Assembly (NCBI RefSeq): GCF_003334355.1 | Contig: NZ_QOWP01000089.1 | Origin: Escherichia coli | Lineage (GTDB): Bacteria > Pseudomonadota > Gammaproteobacteria > Enterobacterales > Enterobacteriaceae | Strand: one strand, 5' to 3' | DNA: 1,309 nucleotides | Shown here: positions 1 to 1,309 of the stretch, piece by piece | How positions within the stretch are numbered: the stretch's first letter is position 1 | Layout of the letters: each line of letters opens with the position of its first letter | Position numbers and translations under genes: made by a program | The notes under the pieces: model-generated | What the model was told of the DNA's origin: nothing | Databases searched by the model: none | Seen by the model: the letters and a program-made list of their open reading frames with translations, nothing else

Positions 1-25
1 TGAACCGCCCCGGGTTTCCTGGAGA
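1..25. repeat. Terminal inverted repeat, IRR relative to transposase orientation
   Basis: Seen in sequence: positions 2-13 (GAACCGCCCCGG) are the exact reverse complement of 1298-1309, and positions 17-25 (TCCTGGAGA) are the exact reverse complement of 1286-1294. Positions 14-16 (GTT) mismatch the partner (AAA). Overall about 21 of 24 paired positions match. Position 1 (T) has no partner inside the window. Confidence 0.85.
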
Positions 26-42
26 GTGTTTTATCTGTGAAC

Positions 43-933
43 TCAGGCTGCCAGATCATCGTTTCCGATGGAAGCATAATAAGCTTTTTCTGCTTCTGCC
101 GGAGGAGTATGGCCCAGCCTTCCCAGCAATCGTCGATTGTTATACCAGTCCACCCACGTTAGTGTGGCCAGTTCCACTTCTGCACGGTTTTTCCAGCTCT
201 TACGGTGTATTACCTCCGCTTTGTAAAGACCATTGATGCTCTCAGCCATCGCGTTGTCATACGAGTCGCCTGTACTCCCTGTTGATGCCAGTAATCCGGC
301 TTCTTTTAGTCGCTCCGTATAGGCCAGTGACACATACTGAGAGCCTTTATCGCTGTGATGGATGGTGCCAGACGGACGACGGGCCCACAACGCCTGCTCC
401 AGCGCATCCAGCACGAATGTCGTTTCCATAGACGATGAGACCCGCCACCCCACGATGTATCCGGCAAACACATCAATGATAAACGCCACATAGACGAAGC
501 CCTGCCATGTGCTGACGTAAGTAAAATCAGCCACCCACAGCTGGTCAGGTCGTTCTGCCACGAACTGACGGTTTACGCGGTCGCCTGCGGCAACGGCTTT
601 CCGGCTGATGGTCGTACGGACCTTTTTACCCCGGAGAACACCGGCAAGTCCCATAACCGCCATGAGACGTGCCACTGTACATCTGGCCACCCTGATTCCT
701 TCCCGTAACAACTGACGCCAGACTTTACGCACACCGTACACCTGATGATTTTCATCGTATACGCGCTGTATCTCTCTCTTCAGCCAGTCGTCGTGCTGCG
801 CACGGGCACTGCGTTTATCCGGATGATGTCGCTGTTGCTGACAGTGGTAATACGTTGACGGGGCAATATGCAGTTCGCTGCATACCGGTCCGACCCCGTA
901 CTGCTCACGCAGCTTATCCAGCAGTGGCATCAT
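43..933 (-). CDS. IS3-family transposase OrfB (DDE / integrase-like catalytic domain; C-terminal part of OrfAB)
   Basis: Seen in sequence: 296-aa ORF, ATG at 933..931 (a second ATG follows at 930..928), TGA stop at 45..43. It lies in the -1 frame relative to orfA. Catalytic triad by motif inspection: D136 in LWVADFTYV (nt 526-528), D195 in HHSDKGSQY (nt 349-351), E231 in [15 protein letters not shown] (nt 241-243). D195 to E231 leaves 35 intervening residues, i.e. the DD(35)E arrangement of retroviral-integrase-like transposases. No internal stops or obvious truncation. Confidence 0.9.
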
Positions 934-941
934 TTTTTCCA
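928..941 (-). other. Putative programmed -1 ribosomal frameshift window (A6 slippery run) overlapping the orfA stop and orfB start (ATGA overlap)
   Basis: Seen in sequence: minus-strand 5'-TGG AAA AAA TGA TG-3', with the A6 run at + coordinates 933..938. In the orfA frame this reads W-K-K-stop; in the -1 frame it reads E-K-M-M and continues into OrfB. Established knowledge: IS3-family elements make the OrfAB transposase by -1 frameshifting on A-rich heptamers (A AAA AAG and similar) near the end of orfA. Inference: this A6 run is the shift site. The exact heptamer here (G AAA AAA, followed by a UGA stop) is not the canonical A AAA AAG. Confidence 0.6.
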
Positions 942-1256
942 GAGGCGGTCGAACTCCGCCTTCGCAAAATAAGCGGAAGCCTGGCGAAGGATATCGTTAC
1001 TGCGGCGCAGTTCACGATTTTCACGTTCCAGCTCTTTCAGACGCTGACGTTCAGCGCTGGTGAGCCCACCATCACCGCCCCCGGTATCCCGCTCATGCTG
1101 GCGAACCCAGACACGCAGAGTCTCCGGCGTACAGCCAATCTTTGGGGCAATGGAACAAATTGCCGCCCACTGTGAGTCATATTCATCCTGACTTTCCAGA
1201 ACCATACGAATCGCCCGCTGACGGACTTCGGGGGAAAAACGAGTATTTTTAGTCAT
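930..1256 (-). CDS. IS3-family transposase OrfA (DNA-binding / regulatory subunit; N-terminal part of the OrfAB fusion transposase)
   Basis: Seen in sequence: 108-aa ORF with ATG at 1256..1254 and TGA stop at 932..930, preceded by a Shine-Dalgarno-like AAGAGG 8 nt upstream. Protein features: a likely helix-turn-helix region around residues 28-52 ([25 protein letters not shown], about nt 1101..1175), a Gly-rich linker (DTGGGDGGL), and a heptad series L76-L83-L90-F97 (about nt 966..1031) consistent with the leucine zipper known for IS3-family OrfA proteins such as IS911 OrfA. Family assignment rests on recalled similarity. Confidence 0.9.
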
Positions 1257-1264
1257 CCTGTTTA

Positions 1265-1270
1265 CCTCTT
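1265..1270 (-). promoter_or_regulatory. Shine-Dalgarno sequence for orfA
   Basis: Seen in sequence: minus-strand AAGAGG (+ strand CCTCTT at 1265..1270), with 8 nt between the GAGG and the orfA ATG at 1256. Confidence 0.6.
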
Positions 1271-1285
1271 TCTCAGGGAGTTTAG

Positions 1286-1309
1286 TCTCCAGGATTTCCG
1301 GGGCGGTTC
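1286..1309. repeat. Terminal inverted repeat, IRL (upstream of orfA)
   Basis: Seen in sequence: reverse-complement partner of positions 2-25 as described for the IRR. The window ends ...CGGGGCGGTTC; a terminal A to pair with T1 (giving the usual IS3-family TG...CA termini) would lie at position 1310, just outside the window. Confidence 0.85.

Follow-up and report, generated by a model that had tools for sequence, protein, structure and literature searches.

A candidate weak promoter beside the left inverted repeat of IS629/IS1203 and an in silico search for a circle-junction promoter

The element and its left end

The stretch of Escherichia coli DNA analysed here (1,309 nucleotides in all; the window) is the insertion sequence IS629/IS1203 of the IS3 family, lying in reverse orientation. 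All of its 1309 bp agree (100% identity) with a RefSeq locus that bears the annotation 'IS3-like element IS1203 family transposase', and this identity together with the anatomy described below makes the assignment practically certain. Of 5426 complete E. coli genomes, 4253 contain matches to the window sequence. In E. coli O157:H7, no other insertion sequence is as abundant as IS629, which drives much of the genome diversification there. The element is already known, and the feature at its left end is an ordinary one that is known as well. The window contains 1309 of the element's 1310 bp and lacks the last base: in an identical genomic copy the base following position 1309 is A, so that the element measures 1310 bp and the window ends one base short. 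Throughout, left-end positions are numbered along the orfA strand, starting at the left tip, with position p corresponding to window coordinate 1311 - p.

The list of open reading frames shows orfA overlapping orfB, which lies in another phase (Table 1). OrfB matched the NCBIfam profile transpos_IS3 (NF033516) with 316 bits (cut-off 160) over profile positions 93-369, and an ALIL pseudoknot of the kind that stimulates frameshifting was recognized at the overlap. A programmed frameshift is annotated in RefSeq for the identical locus; OrfAB would be made via this predicted programmed -1 frameshift, and membership of the IS3 family is confirmed. The terminal inverted repeat is imperfect, its arms (2-25 and 1286-1309 of the window) being 88% complementary, and the tips of the element read 5'-TG...CA-3'. 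Target duplications measured 3 bp in the relatives L008, L010 and L011 and 4 bp in one IS629 copy (L014); an identical plasmid copy had no target duplication, and the window itself excludes the flanks.

The segment at 1257-1309 consists of the 25-bp left inverted repeat (IRL), i.e. the end to which the transposase binds and at which it cleaves, and the orfA leader, in which the Shine-Dalgarno sequence lies. On the minus strand, this end reads T(1310)GAACCGCCCCGGAAATCCTGGAGAC TAAACT CCCTGAGA AAGAGG TAAACAGG ATG, with TAAACT beginning one base past the inner edge of the 25-bp IRL and 22 nt before the ATG.

Table 1 Features of the element in window coordinates, with left-end positions given in the last column where applicable
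Feature	Window coordinates	Strand	Description
IRR	1..25	+	Right inverted repeat; read outward, ends ...CCCGGGGCGGTTCA
orfB	43..933	-	Open reading frame, 296 aa; catalytic part of the OrfAB transposase
ALIL pseudoknot	859..975	-	Stimulator of frameshifting where orfA and orfB overlap; Rfam RF01497, 121.5 bits, E = 9e-33
orfA	930..1256	-	Open reading frame, 108 aa; covers positions 1-86 of NCBIfam transpos_IS3 (NF033516), the N-terminal part
orfA start codon ATG	1254..1256	-	Start of the open reading frame
Fold-back 3' arm CAGGAT	1255..1260	-	Positions 51-56; covers A and U of the start codon
Shine-Dalgarno AAGAGG	1265..1270	-	8 nt before the orfA ATG
Putative transcription start	1271..1272	-	Positions 39-40; from -10 geometry, about 7 nt past TAAACT; between the fold-back arms
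TAAACT, candidate -10	1279..1284	-	Positions 27-32; 4/6 to TATAAT, including T1, A2 and T6
GAGACT, alternative weak -10	1284..1289	-	Positions 22-27; 3/6; potential -35 is N+TGAAC at the tip, 16 bp away
IRL	1286..1309	-	Inverted-repeat arm, positions 2-25 of 25; the tip T (position 1, base 1310) falls outside the window
Fold-back 5' arm ATCCTG	1290..1295	-	Positions 16-21, inside IRL; from the minimum-free-energy fold
-35 slot at 17-bp spacing, ACCGCC	1302..1307	-	1/6; in the outer, cleavage-proximal part of IRL

Candidate promoter upstream of orfA

Promoters were scored with a simple sigma-70 matrix derived from consensus frequencies of the Hawley-McClure and Harley-Reynolds type, any remainder at a position being shared equally by the other bases; the matrix takes no account of UP elements, extended -10 motifs or activators. 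Calibration on about 45,600 background positions from fetched E. coli loci placed the 99th percentile at 5.8 bits and the 99.9th at 9.1 bits.

The -10-like hexamer TAAACT, which a sequence-only reading of this DNA had pointed out on the minus strand, is present as claimed; it scores 5.2 bits, and the 54-nt leader contains no other good -10-like hexamer. The same reading had seen no convincing -35 at a spacing of 16-18 bp, and indeed the hexamers at 16, 17 and 18 bp (CCGCCC, ACCGCC and AACCGC) agree with TTGACA at 2, 1 and 0 of six positions, respectively. As for the TGAACC that it had placed at the extreme tip, the distance of 20 nt upstream of TAAACT is exact, but the window holds only GAACC, the T being base 1310. 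Inside the element, the best pair upstream of orfA is CCGCCC-16-TAAACT, which at 2.4 bits (~94-95th percentile of background) supports in silico the earlier suggestion of a weak or incomplete resident promoter. A consensus scan returned no sigma-70-like promoter in the entire window and no inward promoter from the flank of the identical copy, and no TGn indicative of an extended -10 precedes any IS629 hexamer ending in T. Scored with the same matrix, the left ends of other family members reached 5.4 bits in IS3 (TAGTGG-17-TAAACT), 7.6 bits in IS150 (TGGACG-18-TAATAT), 8.9 bits in IS911 (TTGGCC-16-TATGCT) and 9.6 bits in IS2 (GTGATA-17-TAGACT). In the literature searched, we found no description of a promoter, transcription start or circle junction for IS629/IS1203/IS3411.

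In a leader of the same length, at least one hexamer as good as TAAACT is expected by chance with a probability of ~0.17, and on the same strand of the whole element five such hexamers were observed against 4.9 expected. The hexamer alone is therefore not beyond chance, and its weight derives from its conservation in relatives, whose left ends were taken from plasmids and from such viral contigs as share the inverted-repeat pattern TGAACCG..CCGG..T....GGAG. TAAACT is identical in all IS629 variants, in L127 and L149, in an Edwardsiella element (L008) with an OrfA 76% identical to that of IS629, and in IS3, while the surrounding positions 14-16, 33, 35 and 38 vary. At the matching place the right inverted repeat (IRR) reads TGTTTT, which makes TAAACT specific to the left end.

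IS3 carries TAAACTC about 20 nt ahead of its orfA ATG, though its inverted repeat is unrelated, and has the 12-mer TAAACTCTCAGT in common with the Edwardsiella element; in that element and in IS629, too, the ATG follows the -10-like hexamer at a similar distance (about 20-22 nt for the three). Since BLASTP gave no alignment between the OrfA proteins of IS3 and IS629, the sharing of the 12-mer could be coincidence, and the TAAACT of IS3 is possibly a convergent case. A wider leader motif made up of TAAACTCTCAGT and the Shine-Dalgarno sequence was also considered and was dropped after a scan of viral contigs, which returned only IS3, one more Edwardsiella-type element and chance matches. More distant relatives from alpha-proteobacteria and Acinetobacter are without TAAACT and instead have TTGnnG at positions 16-21 and TGaGAnAnT at 36-44 (4-9 bits), sites at which IS629 shows the degenerate ATCCTG and GAAAGA. 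Given this loss in the distant relatives, conservation backs TAAACT only within the IS629/Edwardsiella lineage. On this evidence we lean, by a small measure, toward TAAACT being the actual -10 of an orfA promoter.

Reconstructed circle junctions

The sequence-only reading had further raised the possibility of a promoter assembled where IRR and IRL abut in a circular or tandem-dimer intermediate. Junctions were therefore built in silico from the last 60 bases of the element, every possible spacer and the first 90 bases, and scanned with the sigma-70 matrix for promoters spanning the junction. The two controls, IS911 and IS2, agreed with their published junction promoters (PMC9330008, PMC3299598): IS911 gave TTGACC-17-CACACT with any spacer (9.7 bits, 99.96th percentile) and IS2 gave TGGAAA-17-TAGACT with a 1-bp spacer (9.1 bits, 99.9th percentile). 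For IS629, the scan yielded no spacer-independent promoter, and the suggestion did not hold up in this form. The median over the 64 three-base spacers was 3.1 bits (about the 96th percentile), and the maximum, TTGAAC-16-GAGACT (6.3 bits, 99.3rd percentile), arose only with a T beside IRL, the score being 3.1 bits without it. The same outcome was obtained across 21 distinct full-length elements (IS629 variant copies and relatives), none of which had a spacer-independent junction promoter; their junction medians were at most 3.1 bits and every maximum was spacer-dependent.

The layout of the two ends is in line with these scores. IRR, the end of which reads ...CCAGGAAACCCGGGGCGGTTCA, contains neither an outward TTGACA-like -35 nor an A/T-rich tract beside the junction. 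The left end offers -10-like hexamers only at 22-27 and 27-32, with -35 slots that coincide with the spacer base or with parts of IRL; for TAAACT, the slot is inside IRL in linear and circular forms alike. An IS911/IS2-type junction promoter draws an outward-facing -35 from IRR and, at a spacing of 16-18 bp, its -10 from the outer part of IRL; IS629 has neither, whereas both controls have both. With a 3-bp target duplication, as seen in L008, L010 and L011, the duplicated bases would also be the junction spacer, so that the base beside IRL would be the same in linear and circular forms and TTGAAC would not be specific to the circle. In 114 distinct IS629 insertion contexts, the base at -1 of IRL was C in 50, G in 27, T in 23 and A in 14 cases, and an inward promoter of at least 7 bits was present in three.

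A synthetic IRR-TAC-IRL query was covered to at least 80% by 159 E. coli records, and the 30 best of these contained no abutted IRR-IRL, each consisting of two pieces 180-640 bp apart. As abutted junctions are unstable, their absence from genomes says little. With the same matrix, IS3 and IS150 likewise lacked a spacer-independent junction promoter, so that its absence may be common in the family, or the matrix may miss some such promoters. We consider it likely, judging from these scans, that IS629 has no canonical junction promoter.

Fold-back, rival readings and known systems

ATCCTG within IRL (positions 16-21) is the exact complement of CAGGAT (positions 51-56), and the resulting 6-bp stem is part of the minimum-free-energy fold of the IS629 left end (-11.3 kcal/mol), a fold that is not significant when taken alone (z = -1.16; 26 of 200 shuffles fold as well). 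Each family member examined has an analogous stem, which differs in sequence and sometimes in register: the 5' and 3' arms are TTTCGGG and CCCGAAA in the Edwardsiella element, TTGTCGG and CCGATGA in the Acinetobacter elements, GGCTCCA and TGGAGCC in the alpha-proteobacterial elements, and GTGAGT and ACTCAC in IS3, where they flank the Shine-Dalgarno sequence. Two simpler descriptions were tried and rejected. A single conserved helix was not recovered by RNAalifold, whose sole find in 27 left ends was an invariant palindrome within the inverted repeat, CCGG-N5-YYGG, and a stem in fixed register (columns 24-29 with 49-54) held in 55% of cells, with a slide by one column scoring equally.

As the fold-back consists of subgroup-specific stems and not of one helix, we used a partner-swap test. 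Pairing between the interior of IRL and the start region amounted to -12.0 kcal/mol for an element's own partners versus -8.6 kcal/mol with those of relatives, a result reached by 0 of 5000 permutations in a test that ignores kinship; for IS629 the corresponding values were -11.4 and -7.0 kcal/mol. The predicted unpaired probability of the IS629 start region was 0.42 in a read-through RNA versus 0.92 in an RNA beginning at position 39. Across the family, again ignoring kinship, its mean was 0.37 with IRL, 0.79 from position 39 and 0.48 with the upstream part shuffled. These models suggest that the fold-back could co-vary across the family and silence read-through transcripts. Under this assumption productive transcripts should start between the two arms, which fits a -10 at positions 27-32 and counts against an IS911-style junction transcript from the outer half of IRL.

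Our preferred account, which we hold with modest confidence, is that the left end of IS629/IS1203 comprises IRL, a weak promoter devoid of a -35 and a short leader, with no built-in junction promoter. OrfAB transposase would bind and cleave at the 25-bp IRL. Next to it would lie an intrinsically weak, -35-less sigma-70 promoter, the -10 of which is most likely TAAACT, followed by a leader of ~15 nt with AAGAGG and then the orfA ATG. T1, G2, A3, A4, C6, G7 and C10-G13 are invariant in the 27 left ends; as the -35 slot rests on invariant, cleavage-proximal bases of IRL, it could not move toward TTGACA without harm to end function, and promoter strength would be traded against end function. With transposase or OrfA on IRL, occlusion of RNA polymerase would be expected, as suggested by IS2 (PMC3299598). 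The fold-back would form only in RNAs begun upstream of position 16 (for instance by read-through, or from a junction as in IS911) and hide their start codon, while transcripts from the resident promoter would begin between the arms and remain translatable.

Whether orfA has a functional promoter of its own may be questioned. The best pair reaches just 2.4 bits, the consensus scan is empty, TAAACT alone is within chance, and the homologous IS3 left end showed no detectable reporter activity (PMC12095673), all of which would suit an orfA expressed from transcripts entering out of the neighbouring host DNA or from hybrid promoters arisen by chance. TAAACT could then have been kept, for example, as part of the leader RNA or as an IRL-specific operator for OrfA or transposase, in keeping with the OrfA repressor site at the inner edge of IRL in IS2 (PMC3299598). 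We nevertheless regard this as unlikely: a co-varying fold-back between IRL and the start codon makes sense only with productive starts inside the element, only 3 of the 114 insertion contexts supply an inward promoter of at least 7 bits, and the distance from the -10 to the ATG is alike in IS629, the Edwardsiella element and IS3. A resident promoter of the type predicted in distant relatives, whose -35 would occupy positions 16-21 and whose extended -10, at 36-44, would place the start at or beside the ATG and give a leaderless or near-leaderless mRNA, appears highly improbable. Those relatives do score 4-9 bits for TTGnnG-17-GAnAnT at these sites, and TGAGA is conserved at positions 36-40, but in IS629 the two hexamers are degenerate (ATCCTG, and GAAAGA with a last position other than T), four extra bases before the ATG abolish the geometry, and a good Shine-Dalgarno sequence, AAGAGG, has been kept.

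It is also conceivable, though we give it little credence, that a circle or tandem dimer of IS629 does form a junction promoter from non-canonical parts, be it N+TGAAC with GAGACT or IRR DNA in the role of an upstream activating region. The family includes documented junction promoters, namely those of IS911, IS2 and ISLC3 (PMC9330008), and TTGAAC-16-GAGACT not only scores at the 99.3rd percentile when T stands beside IRL but would also start transcription at about position 34-35, downstream of the 5' arm of the fold-back. Its -35, however, hangs on one flanking base that is identical in linear and circular forms and is T in only 20% of the 114 insertion contexts. IRR has neither a TTGACA-like hexamer nor an A/T-rich tract beside the junction; in addition, none of the 21 full-length elements offered a spacer-independent case, and no abutted IS629 ends occurred among the best E. 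coli matches listed.

We also put forward, tentatively, a further reading, which we hold to be possible but rather doubtful: the IS629 clade as a whole may be without a hard-wired junction promoter and may instead combine a -35-less promoter locked in by the cleavage end, a T+TGAAC -35 in the ~20% of insertions that provide the T, and a co-evolving, silencing fold-back. If true, there would be no transient boost of transcription after circle formation, unlike in IS911 and IS2, and expression would vary with the insertion site and not with circularisation. The presence or absence of such a boost bears on how IS629 transposase is controlled, and the result for IS629 on how far the IS911 model reaches across the IS3 family. 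The outcome itself is a negative in silico test on a long-known element and holds nothing unexpected; pending experiment, the junction-negative result and the fold-back would be modest additions to what is known of it.

IS911 belongs to the same family as IS629 and has the order predicted for it, namely IRL, weak resident promoter, orfA, frameshift and orfB; the 5'-TG...CA-3' ends are shared as well, and so, presumably, are a 3-bp target duplication and the copy-out/paste-in route via a circle. In IS911, a junction promoter about 40-fold above the resident one is formed by a -35 that faces outward in IRR together with a -10 in IRL (PMC9330008), and the review describing it names only IS911, IS2 and ISLC3 as having junction promoters within the family (PMC9330008). 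The IS911 parts, TTGACC in IRR and CACACT in IRL, stand 17 bp apart over a 3-bp spacer, whereas IS629 has neither at a usable spacing; the resident promoter of IS911 also scores far above that of IS629 (TTGGCC-16-TATGCT at 8.9 bits versus 2.4 bits). IS2 resembles IS629 as read here in that a weak resident promoter at the inner edge of IRL overlaps a protein-binding sequence, such that the bases there strike a compromise between the demands of the end and those of the promoter. It differs in that its IRL starts with TAGACT, the -10 of the junction promoter Pjunc, which is paired with TGGAAA in IRR (PMC3299598). Pjunc needs a 17-bp promoter spacer, which is supplied by the 1-bp junction spacer (PMC3299598). 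The resident IS2 promoter, PIRL, is moreover of the extended -10 type, whereas in IS629 no TGn stands before a -10-like hexamer ending in T. For the IS3 left end, a promoter was described earlier, yet this end was among the parents without detectable activity in a reporter study (PMC12095673). IS3 has TAAACTC about as far from its orfA ATG as IS629 and a fold-back of its own (GTGAGT/ACTCAC), but its inverted repeat is 39 bp long and of unrelated sequence, and its OrfA is unalignable to that of IS629 by BLASTP.

In IS10 and IS50, a fold-back reportedly inhibits read-through transcripts. Compared with these two, the IS629 fold-back is predicted only, with a short 6-bp stem that is not significant alone and a register that differs among subgroups. 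In IS200, a stem sequesters the Shine-Dalgarno sequence (PMC4513863). The likeness of IS10, IS50 and IS200 to IS629 lies in an inverted repeat that links the end of the element to the translation start and that would form only in RNAs initiated upstream of the resident start.

Conserved palindrome in the left terminal repeat

The CCGG-N5-YYGG palindrome lying within the inverted repeat was invariant in 27/27 left ends of alignment A1, and no covariation was found in it among these ends. It is probably a DNA-level recognition feature for the transposase and not an RNA structure. Within IRR, the right terminal repeat, a palindromic site resembles a terminator that would stop transcription arriving from the right flank, i.e., antisense to orfB; its copy in IRL, the left terminal repeat on the orfA side, has no T run after it. 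Two terminator-like sites were seen in the window, as compared to 1.1 expected by chance. Farther inside the element, the ALIL pseudoknot is the stimulator of frameshifting.

The window covers 1309 of the 1310 bp of the element, the terminal A at base 1310 being absent; read on the orfA strand, this base is the T that opens TGAACC. The identical plasmid copy (locus L001) lacks a target duplication, with TAC on one side and GAT on the other (298-300 and 1611-1613). Its neighbours there are a further transposase gene on one side and a truncated traH on the other, a setting that suggests a rearrangement after insertion.

Features of the element and its relatives (window coordinates unless a locus or the left tip is named)
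Feature	Position	Strand	Details
CCGG-N5-YYGG palindrome	1289-1301	-	alignment A1 columns 10-13 and 19-22
Terminator-like site	10-22, tail to 32	+	within IRR; CCGGGTTTCCTGG then AGAGTGTTTT
ALIL pseudoknot	859-975	-	Rfam RF01497, 121.5 bits; orfA/orfB overlap
Fold-back 5' arm	1290-1295	-	ATCCTG, inside IRL
Fold-back 3' arm	1255-1260	-	CAGGAT, spans orfA start codon
Predicted promoter, distant relatives	16-21 and 36-44 from left tip		TTGnnG-17-(TGa)GAnAnT
12-mer TAAACTCTCAGT	L003 ~1769-1780 (IS3); L008 ~1256-1267 (Edwardsiella element)

Fold-back onto the orfA start codon

IRL contains a hexamer exactly complementary to one lying across the orfA start codon. Relatives carry analogous stems of differing sequence, and in each element its own pair of arms was better than swapped pairs (0/5000 permutations, kinship ignored). 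Such a predicted fold-back may serve to silence read-through transcripts. Positions 14-16 of the terminal repeats read AAA in IRL versus GTT in IRR (window 1295-1297, minus strand, versus 14-16, plus strand), and this trinucleotide is polymorphic across IS629 copies (GAA in 72, AAA in 39, GTT in 2 and TAA in 1 of 114 distinct insertion contexts); an A at position 16 adds to the fold-back an A:U pair with the start codon.

Promoter and leader in related elements

Distant relatives (loci L059, L079, L011, L107 and others) have a predicted promoter scoring 4-9 bits, which is degenerate in IS629. Since the start expected from it falls at or adjoining the orfA ATG, this prediction hints at a leaderless or near-leaderless mRNA in these relatives. 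IS3 and the Edwardsiella relative of IS629 have a 12-mer in common, located immediately ahead of the Shine-Dalgarno sequence. BLASTP of IS629 OrfA against IS3 OrfA returned no alignment. The inverted repeats of IS3 and the Edwardsiella element are unrelated, and the common 12-mer could be due to convergence, to chance or to exchange of a leader segment.
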